From: an uncultured Bacilli bacterium
GTDB lineage: Bacteria > Bacillota_I > Bacilli_A > RF39 > UBA660
DNA length: 64,000 nt
Assembly (NCBI GenBank): GCA_947625635.1
Contig: CANQPA010000001.1
Coordinates: forward strand, 3,199-67,198
Reading direction: 5' to 3'
Part shown: positions 54,894-58,760 of the stretch, piece after piece
How positions within the stretch are numbered: the stretch's first letter is position 1
Layout of the letters: each line of letters begins with the position of its first letter
Notes under the pieces: model-generated
The model's database searches: none
What the model was told of the DNA's origin: nothing
Seen by the model: the letters and a program-made list of their open reading frames with translations, nothing else
Made by a program: the position numbers and the translations under genes

Positions 54894-54927
54894 TTTTTAT
54901 CTTGCCTATATAAGAAAGGTGAGAATT

Positions 54928-55074
54928 ATGAAATTAAGAAATTTTTTAAAAATACATCATAATCTCATTATTTCTTTTATAGACTTTATTCAAATTATTA
55001 ATATTTTTGTAAATTCGAATATTATATCAATTTTAATAGTAATATTAAGAAATATAATGAGAGAAAGAAAGTGA
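54928..55074 (+). CDS. small hydrophobic peptide ORF (48 aa), not in ORF track
   Basis: AAGAAAGGTGAG SD, then ATG. Translation MKLRNFLKIHHNLIISFIDFIQIINIFVNSNIISILIVILRNIMRERK has a hydrophobic helix with a basic C-terminus. Confidence 0.35.
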   Translation: MKLRNFLKIHHNLIISFIDFIQIINIFVNSNIISILIVILRNIMRERK

Positions 55075-55077
55075 TGT

Positions 55078-55111
55078 ATAAAAAACTCTTAAAGCGCGTA
55101 CTTTAAGAGTT
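55078..55111 (-). terminator. intrinsic (bidirectional) terminator after serS
   Basis: AACTCTTAAAG-CGCGTA-CTTTAAGAGTT hairpin flanked by A6 and T-rich runs. Confidence 0.75.
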
Positions 55112-56395
55112 TTATTTTACATCTATTTTTTCTTTTCCACCCATATAAGGTCTTAATACTTTTGGAATTTTTATGCTACCGTCTTTTTCGTAATTGTTTT
55201 CAATTAATGCAATTAATCCCCTTGGTGATGCTACCACAGTATTATTTAATGTATGTACATAATATGTCCCATTTTCTCCCTTTGCTCTTATCCCAAGACG
55301 CCTTGATTGTGCATCACCCAAAGTAGAGCAACTACCAACTTCAAAATATTTTTTTTGTCTTGGACTCCAAGCCTCAATATCACATGATTTAACTTTAAGG
55401 TCAGCTAAATCTCCACTGCAACATTCAAGTTGTCTTACTGGTATATCCATATTTCTAAATATTTCAACTGTGTATTTCCACATTTTATTGTACCATTCCA
55501 TAGAATCCTCTGGTTTACAAAGTACTATCATTTCTTGTTTTTCAAATTGATGTACACGATATAATCCTCTTTCTTCAAGTCCATGGGATCCTCCTTCTTT
55601 TCTAAAACAAGGAGAATACGATGTCATAGTTATCGGAAGACTTGATTCTTTAACCATTTGATCTTTAAACCTACCAATCATAGAATGTTCACTGGTACCT
55701 ATTAAAAATAAATCTTCCCCTTCTATTTTATACATCATAGCCTGCATTTCAGGAAAAGACATAACGCCTTCTACTACTGATGAGTGTATCATAAACGGAG
55801 GTATTGCATAAATAAAACCTTTGTCTATCATAAAATCCCTTGCATAAGCAAGCATTGCTTCATGAAGTCTTGCAATATCACCCATTAGATAATAAAATCC
55901 CTCTCCACTCGTTCTTCCAGCTGATTCTTTATCTAATCCATTTAAATTTTCTAATATATCTGCATGATATGGTATTTCATAATCAGGAACTATTGGTTCT
56001 CCAAATTTTTCAACTTCAACATTAAATGTATCGTCTTTTCCAATTGGAACACTATCATCAATTATATTAGGTATATTCATCATTTTGATTTTAATTTCAT
56101 GTGAAAGAACTTCTTCTCTTTCTTTCAACTCTTCCAATTCATTACTGTATTGAGAAATTTCTTCTTTAACTTTTTCTGCTTGATCTTTTTTTCCTTCTCT
56201 CATTAAAGCTCCTATTTCGCTACTTTTGGAATTTTTCAAAGCTCTAAGATCATCACCCTTTTTTTTACAATCACGATATTCTATATCAAGTTTCTCAATT
56301 TCATCTACAATAGGTAATTTTTCATCTTGAAATTTTTTCTTTATATTTTCTTTAACTAACTCTTTATTTTCTCTTATTAATTTAATATCTATCAT
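55112..56395 (-). CDS. serS: serine--tRNA ligase
   Basis: N-terminal coiled-coil arm and class II motifs (FRKEGGSHG, TLNNTVVASPRGLIALIEN). Confidence 0.95.
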   Translation of the reverse strand: MIDIKLIRENKELVKENIKKKFQDEKLPIVDEIEKLDIEYRDCKKKGDDLRALKNSKSSEIGALMREGKKDQAEKVKEEISQYSNELEELKEREEVLSHEIKIKMMNIPNIIDDSVPIGKDDTFNVEVEKFGEPIVPDYEIPYHADILENLNGLDKESAGRTSGEGFYYLMGDIARLHEAMLAYARDFMIDKGFIYAIPPFMIHSSVVEGVMSFPEMQAMMYKIEGEDLFLIGTSEHSMIGRFKDQMVKESSLPITMTSYSPCFRKEGGSHGLEERGLYRVHQFEKQEMIVLCKPEDSMEWYNKMWKYTVEIFRNMDIPVRQLECCSGDLADLKVKSCDIEAWSPRQKKYFEVGSCSTLGDAQSRRLGIRAKGENGTYYVHTLNNTVVASPRGLIALIENNYEKDGSIKIPKVLRPYMGGKEKIDVK

Positions 56396-56396
56396 A

Positions 56397-56897
56397 TCAA
56401 TTCTCCATTTCTTTTATTCTATTTAATATTTTCTCATAAGATGGAGTATACTTTTTTTCTACTCTTTCCCAATCTTTTAATGTAGGATTTTTAATCCTAG
56501 TCATATCCATATTATTTTCTAAATCAGCTATTTTAACCATAAGTGAATCAAACGATGCCTCATTTACTAATTTGTCTATGTATTTTCTATAATCCATCGA
56601 TTTAGGTTTACTTAATATTAAAACTTCATCAACTATACTTTTAGGAAAACCGATCTCTAAAAGTTCATCATAAGTAATATTTTTATCTTCTATAACATCA
56701 TGAAGCAAAGCAATTATTTTTTGATTTTCTGTACAAACATTTCTATAAACATAAATTAAGTGAAGAATATAAGGATGTCCGCCTTTGTCTATATCATTTT
56801 TAAAAATATTAGAAACTATTTCAAGGGCTTTATATATCAAATTACCACTGTTTTTTATTTCTTCATATTTTTCATCACTAAAATATTCTTTTAACAT
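56397..56897 (-). CDS. small RelA/SpoT-type HD hydrolase (small alarmone hydrolase-like)
   Basis: DKGGHPYILHLIYV ... IIALLHDVIEDKNITYDELLEIGFP ... VKIADLENNMD follows the (p)ppGpp-hydrolase HD pattern (G.PY..H ... LLHDv.ED ... KlAD..hN). Stop TGA is 1 nt before the serS ATG. Confidence 0.6.
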   Translation of the reverse strand: MLKEYFSDEKYEEIKNSGNLIYKALEIVSNIFKNDIDKGGHPYILHLIYVYRNVCTENQKIIALLHDVIEDKNITYDELLEIGFPKSIVDEVLILSKPKSMDYRKYIDKLVNEASFDSLMVKIADLENNMDMTRIKNPTLKDWERVEKKYTPSYEKILNRIKEMEN

Positions 56898-56913
56898 AAA
56901 TGGCCTCCTAACA

Positions 56914-57105
56914 AATAAAAGACCACCATTAGGAGTAACTAATACGGTACCATCCTAATAATAGTCTTAATTAGCATAACGGCATTACCGGAAATGTTTA
57001 CATCTCACTCTAGAGTAGATTCATAAAATACAAATGTTAATTCACACCAACCATTAACTCTCTTAAAAATAATATTTTATTACTATTCTCTTTCATCGAT
57101 TTATG
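56914..57105 (-). promoter_or_regulatory. T-box leader, Ser specifier (UCU)
   Basis: Minus strand has AUCGAUGAAAGAGAAUAG (AGAGA box) and a distal GGUUGGUGUGAA loop. The specifier context is AUGAAUCUACUCUAGAG (UCU + A). T-box UUAGGAUGGUACCGUA is followed by terminator CCGUAUUAG-UUACUC-CUAAUGGUGG + UCUUUUAUUU. Confidence 0.75.
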
Positions 57106-57110
57106 TATTA

Positions 57111-57139
57111 ATTCTACCACTTAATAAGACATAAGTCAA
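57111..57139 (-). promoter_or_regulatory. sigma-A promoter of the Ser T-box operon
   Basis: TTGACT (57139-57134), 17 nt, TGG-TAGAAT (57116-57111). Confidence 0.55.
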
Positions 57140-57142
57140 TAA

Positions 57143-57940
57143 TTAAATCTTTATTTTTTGTACACCTTTTTGCATATTATTTGACAAAGTACGTTCTTTT
57201 CTTTTTGTTCTAGCTATAAATTTTACCACAAATCTTAAATGTTTTTTTTCTTTTCTATTATTTGAACTTTTTAATGAATTAGTTAAATTAACTGCTACTT
57301 CAGATGACGTTAAACCATTATTTAAAGCACTTTTTATTTTTCCACTATTTTCTCTAACTAAAGTAGAAGAATATTCTTCACTATTACTATCAGCTTCTTT
57401 TTCACCGCTTTTCATCTCAGCTACAACTTCAACTGCTTCTTTTAATTGTGTGGGTGTTTGCCCTGTTTGTCCTACTTTTTCTACTATGCCTTCTAAAGTA
57501 GAACTTATAGCTTCACCGCTTATTCCACTATTTATAGCATCGGTTAAATATTTTTCATTATCGAAAACAGTTCTAGATTGAATAGAATTAGAACTTTTTT
57601 TGTATTTCCATACAGCCTCTAACAGTTGTTGTTTATACATAAATAAATTTTTTTTATATTGTTCAATATTTTCAGATTTTACATTTTTATCTTCGTTTAA
57701 ATCTTTCAAAAATTGTGTGTTTTTATCCATGATATTTTCTAATATATGTTCAAGTTCATTTTCCATAACGGTATATATTTCTTTTCTTTTAGAAGTATTG
57801 TAAGAGTTTTCCCCATTTGCCAAAATACGCATATCTTCTTGTGTTAAAGGAAAATTATTATTAACAAATTTATTTATATAATTTTTAAGATCTAAGTAAT
57901 AATCCATGGCTCCTAATTGTTCTATCTTTTTCAAATCCAT
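57143..57940 (-). CDS. hypothetical protein with a basic C-terminus
   Basis: ATG at 57940 after an AGGTGA SD. Helical with a Ser/Gly-rich middle and a KRKERT-rich tail. No family recognised. Confidence 0.5.
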   Translation of the reverse strand: MDLKKIEQLGAMDYYLDLKNYINKFVNNNFPLTQEDMRILANGENSYNTSKRKEIYTVMENELEHILENIMDKNTQFLKDLNEDKNVKSENIEQYKKNLFMYKQQLLEAVWKYKKSSNSIQSRTVFDNEKYLTDAINSGISGEAISSTLEGIVEKVGQTGQTPTQLKEAVEVVAEMKSGEKEADSNSEEYSSTLVRENSGKIKSALNNGLTSSEVAVNLTNSLKSSNNRKEKKHLRFVVKFIARTKRKERTLSNNMQKGVQKIKI

Positions 57941-58064
57941 ACTATCACCTATAGTTATTTTATCCAACACTGTTATCTTATACAATAATTTTTTTTAAAA
58001 TGTTTTGAATATTTACACTGTATAGGACAAAATATGTAAAGCATATATTATTTTGAGGTGTTTT

Positions 58065-58760
58065 ATGTTTAATTTTATAAAAAATTTATTCAAAGATTTC
58101 TACATATTTGCAGCTGCATACTCAAATAATTCGTTTCCGGATCCATTATCTAAAGAAAAAGAAGATTTATATGTAGAAAAGGCTAAATTAGGAGATAAAG
58201 AAGCGCGTAATAAACTTATAGAACACAATTTAAGATTAGTTGCACATATAGTAAAAAAATATGATAATAAGAATGAAGACACAGATGATCTTATAAGTAT
58301 TGGTACAATAGGGCTTATCAAAGGAGTTGATAGTTACTCAAAAAAGAAAAATACCCGACTTACTACATATGCGGCTCGTTGTATAGAAAATGAAATATTA
58401 ATGTACTTTAGAAATAATAAAAAAAGAAATAAAGATATAAGTATAAATGAATCAGTTGGATTTGATAAAGAAGGTAATGAGATAACGATTCTTGATATAC
58501 TAAAAACGCCTACTCCAGATTATGCCTTAGATATTCATAAGGAAAATAACATAGAAGATTTAAAAAAATATTTAGAAGTTTTAACTCCTAGGGAAAAAGA
58601 AATAATTATGGAAAGATATGGACTCAATGATAATGATGAAATAACTCAAAAAGAAATAGCTAAAAAATTGGGAATATCAAGAAGTTATGTATCAAGAATA
58701 GAAAAAAGGGCTTTGACCAAAATCTTAAGAGAATTTTTAAAAAATAATAAAGATGTCTAG
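58065..58760 (+). CDS. sigK: RNA polymerase sporulation sigma factor SigK (pro-form, uninterrupted)
   Basis: MFNFIKNLFKDFYIFAAAYSNNSFPDPLS pro-sequence, then ARNKLIEHNLRLVAHIVKKY, DLISIGTIGLIKGV, YAARCIENEILMY, GISRSYVSRIEKRAL. This is closer to B. subtilis SigK than to SigE as remembered. ATG at 58065 after a GAGGTG SD. Confidence 0.85.
   Translation: MFNFIKNLFKDFYIFAAAYSNNSFPDPLSKEKEDLYVEKAKLGDKEARNKLIEHNLRLVAHIVKKYDNKNEDTDDLISIGTIGLIKGVDSYSKKKNTRLTTYAARCIENEILMYFRNNKKRNKDISINESVGFDKEGNEITILDILKTPTPDYALDIHKENNIEDLKKYLEVLTPREKEIIMERYGLNDNDEITQKEIAKKLGISRSYVSRIEKRALTKILREFLKNNKDV

Follow-up and report, generated by a model that had tools for sequence, protein, structure and literature searches.

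This report concerns a short operon on the minus strand of a 64,000-nucleotide stretch of DNA from an uncultured Bacilli bacterium (assembly GCA_947625635.1, contig CANQPA010000001.1, positions 3,199 to 67,198), hereafter called the window. The operon combines a serine-specific T-box leader with a gene for a small HD protein and with serS, which encodes seryl-tRNA synthetase (SerRS). Judged by sequence and by a structural model, the HD protein is a member of the Aph1 family of (p)ppApp hydrolases. The original prediction had described the locus as a promoter, a T-box leader with a UCU specifier, a 166-aa HD open reading frame (ORF), and serS starting 1 nt behind it, and each of these elements was recovered where it had been placed, on the minus strand. 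The features of the operon are as follows.

57139..57111, minus strand: sigma-70-type promoter (TTGACT at 57139-57134, a 17-nt spacer, and a TG-extended TAGAAT at 57116-57111)
57105..56928, minus strand: T-box leader (RF00230) with Stem I, Stem II, Stem IIA/B with F-box CCGUUA, and the T-box sequence, without Stem III
57019..57017, minus strand: specifier codon UCU (Ser) in the context GAA-UCU-A (from the sequence and the RF00230 alignment)
56952..56946, minus strand: T-box bulge UGGUACC, the binding site of the tRNA 3'-NCCA end (from the sequence and the RF00230 alignment)
56897..56397, minus strand: aph-like HD gene, 166 aa (ORF list; Shine-Dalgarno sequence AGGAGG at 56909-56904)
56406..56403, minus strand: serS ribosome-binding site (RBS) GGAG, inside the last HD codons (..KEMEN) and 7 nt before the serS ATG
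56395..55112, minus strand: serS (TIGR00414, 405 bits vs a cut-off of 301.65, model positions 1-418 of 418)
55113..55082, minus strand: operon terminator, a 13-bp palindromic hairpin AAAACUCUUAAAG-UACGCG-CUUUAAGAGUUUU followed by the U-run UUAUAC

The promoter matches at 10 of 12 positions, carries the additional TG, and ties with one other 10/12 site as the best of 30 in a scan of 54900-58200 (3.3 kb). Six nucleotides separate its -10 element from the start of the T-box match, and the leader between promoter and HD gene is about 205 nt long. In the same scan the stretch from the T-box match to the HD start is free of promoter-like sites, and from the leader to the end of serS the only terminator-like site is a weak 5-bp match inside serS (55852-55839). 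The HD gene stops with TGA at 56399-56397, and after a single nucleotide serS begins with its ATG at 56395. The codons overlapping the serS GGAG encode a C-terminal KEME/KEIE that is kept across the HD family. At the far end, the operon terminator overlaps the serS stop codon, and the hairpin scan lists the same hairpin on the plus strand. A single transcript would start at the 57139-57111 promoter, run through the Ser T-box leader, the Aph1-family gene, and serS, and end at the hairpin past serS, which is the sole seryl-tRNA synthetase match above the cut-off in the assembly (1.3 Mb, about 90% complete). Upstream lies a 280-aa ORF (57143-57985, minus strand) without a Pfam or NCBIfam family, ending 4 nt before the operon promoter; there is no terminator between it and the leader, which makes read-through into the T-box possible.

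The order leader, HD gene, serS recurs in 64 further genomes (at least 65 related uncultured gut bacteria in all) and is therefore more than a chance arrangement. A scan of species-representative genomes gave 46 loci whose HD protein shows 41% identity or more; serS lies downstream of the HD gene in all 46, within a few bases in 44. A same-strand upstream match to the leader profile was found in 44 of these 46, the remaining two having no upstream sequence. Even among 20 more divergent HD homologues (29-48% identical), 18 still sit between a Ser leader and serS, with SerRS being 70-75% identical.

The HD protein is related to the hydrolase domain of RelA and SpoT. The motifs quoted in the original prediction, namely GGHPYILH, LLHDVIEDKNITYDEL, and KIADLENNMD, are all present in ORF 56897-56397, and TIGR00691 matches with an E-value of 8.9e-8, which makes the protein look like a weak Rel/SpoT relative. 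The Pfam family HD_4 (PF13328), the profile type suggested for checking the protein, gives 11.7 bits vs a gathering threshold of 27.2 (E 0.22) and thus stays below its cut-off. A protein search returned 272 relatives of about 165 aa, labeled "GTP pyrophosphokinase" by NCBI; among the 120 of them that were listed, none has a precomputed Pfam HD-family match, and two longer ones carry unrelated domains. A different HD subfamily fits far better, an outcome that the original prediction had named as refuting it. Searched against the PDB, a profile built from 20 relatives finds 7SMG, annotated "(p)ppApp hydrolase", with E 3e-29, whereas Rel, SpoT, and Mesh1 are matched at 1e-7 or worse (1VJ7, E 1.3e-7). 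This entry is Aph1 (adenosine 3'-pyrophosphohydrolase 1) of Bacteroides caccae (Ahmad et al. 2023, PMC10083569). The fold points the same way. The AlphaFold (AF2) model of the HD protein has a mean confidence (pLDDT) of 95.6, and in a Foldseek search the four chains A-D of 7SMG take ranks 1-4, with template modeling (TM) scores of 0.88-0.92, root-mean-square deviations of 1.7-2.2 A, and 38% identity. The first match outside 7SMG is Mesh1 (3NQW), with a target-normalized TM score (TMt) of 0.66, and other small alarmone hydrolases reach query-normalized TM scores of about 0.6-0.7.

The substrate preference of Aph1 has been traced to individual residues. Its turnover of ppApp is about 478 per min, with essentially none of ppGpp, and its signature comprises D24, R96, D116, R119, K133, and Y134, of which R96 is placed away from the active site (PMC10083569). 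D24 and R119 exclude ppGpp, and a variant carrying D24R and R119A gains ppGpp hydrolysis; among 12 Aph homologues tested, all hydrolyze ppApp and 2 show modest ppGpp activity (PMC10083569). In the profile alignment the six signature positions correspond to D37, K109, D131, R134, K148, and Y150 of the window protein. Among 64 proteins from the same slot between leader and serS, D37, R134, and Y150 are invariant, and position 131 is D in 56 and N in 8. The catalytic metal-binding residues H66, D67, E70, D71, D125, and N129 are likewise found in 64/64, H46 in 63/64, and this active-site conservation holds down to about 29% HD identity. The guanine-contacting residues R43, R44, and S45 of TtRel are replaced by D37, K38, and G39 here and by D24, K25, and A26 in Aph1. 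Taken together, alignment and model give the HD protein the Aph1 fold, the same catalytic residues, and all but one of the six residues for specificity, and (p)ppApp-specific hydrolysis is predicted. The description "small alarmone hydrolase" therefore stands insofar as the protein is stand-alone and related to the RelA/SpoT hydrolase domain; the (p)ppGpp specificity that came with it does not, given the Aph1 match (E 3e-29, TM 0.92) and the pair D37/R134.

The enzyme would remove the 3'-pyrophosphate from (p)ppApp, not from (p)ppGpp, and the latter would be left to the two long Rel-type enzymes of the genome. These are RelA/SpoT homologues (RSH), each with full HD_4 and RelA_SpoT domains, and they are the only matches in a RelA_SpoT search of the genome, which found no small synthetase. 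Two RSH proteins are common in genomes of the family, namely a Rel of about 730 aa and a shorter protein of about 480-495 aa in which HD_4 and RelA_SpoT domains are present (G000:C23:10686-11651; L065, L066). The second one appears to lack the C-terminal regulatory half and could supply the Aph substrate.

The leader was found by a permissive Rfam search, the default threshold reporting no match there. The covariance model RF00230 aligns to 57105-56928 over its full length (positions 1-219) with 85.1 bits and E 3.7e-19, and a search of the whole window gives the same result. In the 44 aligned leaders the specifier column holds UCU in most and UCA in 7, both Ser codons, and the UGGNACC bulge has U or C as its fourth base. 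An anticodon UGA reads UCA, and UCU by wobble, and a G73 discriminator pairs with U and C. The genome encodes a tRNA-Ser(UGA) with G73 (C17:1286-1373), and going by these letters, the UCU specifier and the UGGU bulge of the leader fit it. RNAalifold recovers Stem I, Stem II, Stem IIA, and helix A2 from the 44 leaders, and 26 of the 32 pairs are kept through double-sided changes, so that the tRNA-sensing core is under selection. As far as its sequence tells, the leader possesses every tRNA-sensing part of a T-box apart from Stem III, and the Ser-specific T-box that had been proposed is borne out by the covariance match, the specifiers, and the fitting tRNA. When tRNA-Ser charging is low, uncharged tRNA-Ser would bind the leader and terminator read-through would rise, yielding hydrolase and SerRS together. 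About 1 kb upstream of tRNA-Ser(UGA), ARAGORN places an 81-nt tRNA-Ser with the unusual anticodon ACU (C17:160-240).

The expression platform of the leader is atypical. Stem III, a hairpin with 5'-RRRxG ... AA-3' purine flanks, has been called universal (PMC11404447), and according to a review the discriminator needs both the stem and these flanks to hold the tRNA 3' end (PMC7583486). In the 47 serS leaders examined the gap between AAGAC and helix A1 is only 5-8 nt, so a Stem III hairpin cannot form, and its columns are deleted in the alignment; the purine string AAGA is kept all the same. In the place of the usual terminator, two further elements were found.

56968..56919, minus strand: nested terminator hairpin, 5' arm AAGACUAUU (56968-56960) paired with 3' arm GGUGGUCUU (56927-56919), from minimum free energy (MFE) folds
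56920..56911, minus strand: U-rich tract UUUUAUUUGU, directly 3' of the nested hairpin

The hairpin encloses the whole antiterminator, that is, helix A1 (AUUAGGA 56959-53 / UCCUAAU 56934-28), the T-box bulge, and helix A2, and its 5' arm is not the 3' half of the antiterminator. It is the MFE fold in nearly all of the 44 leaders, and a U-run follows it in the orthologous leaders examined as well. RNAalifold, run on a MAFFT alignment, recovered neither helix A1 nor the outer helix, since indels throw the 3' arm out of register; the outer helix was thus judged from the fold of each sequence, from a permutation test with swapped arms, and from counts of pairs at each position. Across the 44 leaders, own arms pair with -7.97 kcal/mol vs -4.76 +/- 0.31 kcal/mol for swapped ones, with 0 of 5000 permutations as low, a test that relatedness of the leaders inflates. 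Distinct arm pairs include CUAUU/GGUGG, CCAAA/UUUGG, CUAUCAAG/CUUGAUGG, and AAUAAGC/GCUUAUU, and positions 5-10 of the outer helix show many compensatory pair types. The outer terminator helix covaries. In the MFE structures of 38-43 of the 47 leaders, the RAGR purines pair with the nucleotides just 5' of the U-run.

As its 5' arm the terminator would use the purine string (AAGAC...), which in canonical T-boxes lies beside Stem III and docks onto the duplex of tRNA and T-box. The leader could then either dock (ON) or complete its terminator (OFF), not both, and the contested element in the serS leaders would be the purine string itself, AAGAC pairing with GUCUU. Two other candidates for the missing stem were rejected. 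A local Stem III CUAAU/AUUAG in the window overlaps helix A1 and is not seen in orthologues. Nor can the outer helix, taken as a long-range Stem III that persists in both states, be the whole answer, as hairpin plus U-run would always terminate.

The genome holds nine T-box matches, which allow this design to be placed among its neighbors. The ileS T-box in the same window (39587-39400, minus strand) scores 96.5 bits and has a canonical terminator. The leader of pheS-pheT (G000:C15:8232-8424), on the other hand, has a nested terminator and additionally a local Stem III, CAUAAU-ACU-AUUAUG, complementary to the terminator 3' arm. Leaders anchored on PheS in relatives fall into three platform types for one gene within one bacterial family: canonical (L104, L109, L120, L127), nested with a Stem III open to invasion by the 3' arm (L103, L114, L117, L122), and T-box-sequestering, where the terminator pairs with the T-box sequence (pheS L113, and likewise the serS leaders L010, L042, and L046). 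The nested pheS leaders are best read as an intermediate form. To switch OFF, nested terminators would capture Stem III or its purine flank instead of unzipping A1/A2. A further T-box leader (128 bits) precedes gatCAB (C20:10098-10567), with a stretch resembling the start of a tRNA gene (GCUCAAUUAGCUCAGUCGGUA) before gatC.

The slot between leader and synthetase gene accommodates other genes, too. In 13 loci, DUF1653 (PF07866, E 3.5e-25), a GNAT acetyltransferase (PF13302), or both lie between the leader and the HD gene, and in two loci (L030, L035) a GNAT gene lies between the HD gene and serS. The loci where such genes were noted ahead of the HD gene, DUF1653 being about 80 aa long and GNAT present once or twice, are L007, L009, L011, L013, L017, L019, L022, L024, L025, L039, L040, and L048. 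In one metagenomic protein (P0062, 242 aa), DUF1653 and the HD domain are fused in frame, a hint that the two are functionally linked. Within the genome itself, 3 of the 9 T-box operons carry an extra gene between leader and synthetase gene; the third, next to the two listed here, is the operon of Ser leader, Aph-like gene, and serS.

39587-38546, minus strand: Ile leader, then a 227-aa ORF (39229-38546, no Pfam family), then ileS
G000:C9:30666-32877 (L100:1501-3179), no strand given: T-box leader, then dUTPase (PF00692, E 5.9e-15), then metG (class I synthetase of methionyl type, PF09334)

The T-box leader of the metG operon scores 80.2 bits, which is below the cut-off. Two of the three inserted genes encode nucleotide pyrophosphohydrolases (dUTPase and the Aph-like protein). 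The HD gene is absent from three genomes, two of them of the genus to which the window belongs, in which the same nested leader stands directly before serS; two more genomes in this comparison have no leader. The original prediction had proposed that tRNA charging is wired to (p)ppGpp degradation, a proposal weakened by the HD-less leaders within the genus and by the unrelated genes found in the same slot. Since the slot is filled by various small genes and 3/9 T-box operons carry an insert, a purpose-built circuit is doubtful, and the HD gene more probably came under serine sensing by operon hitch-hiking, with growth- and starvation-coupled expression as the result. Our preferred explanation, which sequence and model make probable, is thus that a Ser T-box with a nested terminator controls an Aph1-family (p)ppApp hydrolase and serS on one transcript, with the hydrolase gene as a hitch-hiking slot gene.

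Several observations weigh against this explanation. Concerning the leader, its score is below the Rfam gathering cut-off of 93 bits, a shortfall that arises because the Stem III columns are deleted in the RF00230 alignment. An antiterminator without Stem III barely binds tRNA according to the review (PMC7583486), and a model with a contested purine string leaves the holding of the tRNA 3' end without Stem III unexplained. The ON state is not accounted for thermodynamically, the nested hairpin having about -18 to -22 kcal/mol and A1 being present in both states. Concerning the enzyme, K148 is kept in only 45/64 slot proteins, and the R96 position of the signature is not kept (K109 in the window; N 32, R 20, K 5 across the family). 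An N-terminal extension of about 15 residues is conserved in the family and missing from Aph1, and no (p)ppApp synthetase was identified in the genome. Finally, HD genes are found in the slot even where their products are only about 29% identical, SerRS being above 68% throughout, and such deep persistence, which pure hitch-hiking does not predict, could reflect a real functional tie to serS.

The alternative that survives best concerns the source of the substrate. The HD protein may confer immunity against (p)ppApp-synthesizing toxins from phages or neighboring bacteria, its placement behind the T-box having no regulatory meaning. Aph1 itself came to light as immunity against Apk1, a phage-associated toxin (PMC10083569), and several traits of the HD gene would suit such a role. 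It evolves fast (29-88% identity across loci vs 68-84% for SerRS) and is patchily distributed: a stand-alone Aph-like gene is present in about 36 of the 200 genomes sampled from the family (uncultured gut Bacilli, 0.8-1.6 Mb), and it is missing from the two same-genus genomes mentioned above. Homologues are also frequent in phages (phrog_990, E 2.4e-37; 252 phage records). Yet there is neither an adjacent toxin gene nor a PADLOC defence family match, and the GC content at third codon positions (0.150 vs 0.159 in serS, which reads as equal) indicates that the gene is not a recent import. Retention of the slot in the 18 of 20 divergent cases would be unusual for a mobile immunity gene. Pairwise distances of HD protein and SerRS show a modest correlation (Mantel r = 0.265, 0/2000 permutations as high). 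We regard immunity as a possible though rather unlikely account; it overlaps the explanation preferred above and differs from it only in the source of the substrate.

A second alternative changes the substrate altogether. Here the enzyme would mainly act on tRNA whose 3'-terminal adenosine has been pyrophosphorylated by toxic small alarmone synthetases (toxSAS) of phage-defence systems or competitors, making the operon a module for tRNA-end repair and recharging. The chemistry, an adenosine 3'-pyrophosphate, is the same as in ppApp, and MESH1 and ATfaRel remove the modification and restore aminoacylation (Kurata et al. 2021). Linkage to an aminoacyl-tRNA synthetase gene is kept in 65 genomes despite fast HD divergence, and the common phage homologues would suit the countering of a tRNA-targeting defence. 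Against this, the RelA_SpoT search of the genome gave the two long RSH and no small or toxic synthetase, and the slot proteins are acidic (median isoelectric point 5.6, net charge -4). The steric sieve of the T-box (PMC7583486) should, in addition, reject a 3'-pyrophosphate just like an aminoacyl group, so the damage would not be sensed. We therefore consider tRNA repair improbable; if true, it would be the first housekeeping, synthetase-linked use of RSH-type tRNA de-pyrophosphorylation.

Less probable still is the reading from which this analysis started, in which the HD protein is a small (p)ppGpp hydrolase and uncharged tRNA-Ser directly raises (p)ppGpp degradation. It draws on the weak Rel/SpoT similarity (TIGR00691, 1VJ7), the common HD fold with its HD and ED catalytic motifs, and the modest ppGpp activity of 2/12 Aph homologues (PMC10083569). 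Aph1, however, matches better by at least 21 orders of magnitude and also heads the fold comparison; the guanine-binding positions of Rel are D37 and K38 here, R134 is invariant, HD_4 stays below its cut-off, and two RSH enzymes with full HD_4 domains are already in the genome.

Equally far down ranks translational control, in which CUCCUAA (the 3' strand of A1, 56935-56929) would, without uncharged tRNA, pair with the RBS UUAGGAG (56911-56905), as in actinobacterial ileS T-boxes: the 7-nt complementarity in the window and the MFE fold of L004, which picks a CUCCUAA/RBS-type pairing, speak for it, but the pairing shrinks to 4-5 bp in many orthologues (e.g., L003, L012), is far weaker than the nested hairpin, and uses CUCC and GGAG motifs expected anyway from helix A1 and any Shine-Dalgarno sequence, whereas the covarying outer helix with a U-run always after it is the signature of an intrinsic terminator. 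Sequestration of the Shine-Dalgarno sequence was therefore rejected as the main mechanism, being too weak and not conserved.

Returning to the preferred explanation, an Aph1-family hydrolase gene carried along in a Ser T-box operon, we know of no physiological role of the Aph1 family beyond toxin-immunity pairs. The operon would put one Aph subfamily under a defined and tractable signal, the charging of tRNA-Ser, in at least 65 gut-bacterial genomes, and this setting offers a concrete condition for seeking endogenous (p)ppApp or a tRNA-end substrate. The original prediction had called the regulatory logic unfamiliar from described systems, and our literature search agrees, with none of the papers searched mentioning both a T-box riboswitch and an alarmone hydrolase. 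Aph1-family (p)ppApp hydrolases were first defined in 2023, and the main text of that paper does not mention serS, seryl, tRNA, or T-box (PMC10083569). The serS and pheS leaders, for their part, point to a second T-box design, where Stem III and its purine flank, and not A1/A2, are what the terminator competes for. Some caution is appropriate, as the insertion habit of this lineage (dUTPase before metG, an ORF before ileS) warns against assuming regulatory intent in each pairing.

Compared with canonical RF00230 T-boxes of the B. subtilis tyrS and glyQS type, the serS leader shares Stem I with its GA motif, AG bulge, and distal loop, the GAA-codon-purine specifier loop, Stem II, Stem IIA/B with the F-box, the UGGNACC bulge between A1 and A2, and a U-tract terminator ahead of a synthetase gene. 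It differs in having no Stem III, in a terminator that pairs AAGAC with GUCUU around the whole antiterminator, and in the extra enzyme gene before the synthetase gene. The nested pheS-pheT leaders of the same family resemble it more closely, as their 3' arm also pairs 5' of A1, encloses the antiterminator, and is followed by a U-run. They do, however, keep a local Stem III (CAUAAU-loop-AUUAUG) that the terminator invades, which makes their ON and OFF states clearly exclusive, whereas the serS leaders are without it.

Among enzymes, the removal of pyrophosphate from tRNA 3'-CCA ends (Kurata et al. 2021) shares with the present case an RSH-type HD hydrolase acting on an adenosine 3'-pyrophosphate and a tie to aminoacylation. 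The present case differs from MESH1 and ATfaRel in that no toxSAS partner was found, and by this analogy a link of the Aph subfamily to tRNA may serve only as a lead. Mesh1, C. glutamicum RelH, the small alarmone hydrolase of P. aeruginosa, and the Rel/SpoT domain share the HD fold and the metal-binding motifs with the slot protein (Foldseek TM 0.6-0.7). These (p)ppGpp or dual-substrate hydrolases are only 19-24% identical to it; their guanine-contacting residues are replaced, HD_4 falls below its cut-off, and the extra C-terminal helix described for them (PMC10083569) is missing.

The closest known relative is Aph1, with which the slot protein shares a stand-alone HD fold, a similar size, the catalytic H, HD, ED, D, and N, and the signature residues D24, D116, R119, K133, and Y134. 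Aph1 is a compact eight-helix protomer that forms a tetramer. The AF2 model of the slot protein has ten helical segments, including an extra N-terminal helix (8-15). As known here from sequence and model, the slot protein is without R96, carries the N-terminal extension of about 15 residues, and has a longer C-terminal helix. The two also differ in their surroundings: the slot protein is not encoded beside a toxin or a MuF/phage module, but inside a T-box-controlled serS operon.

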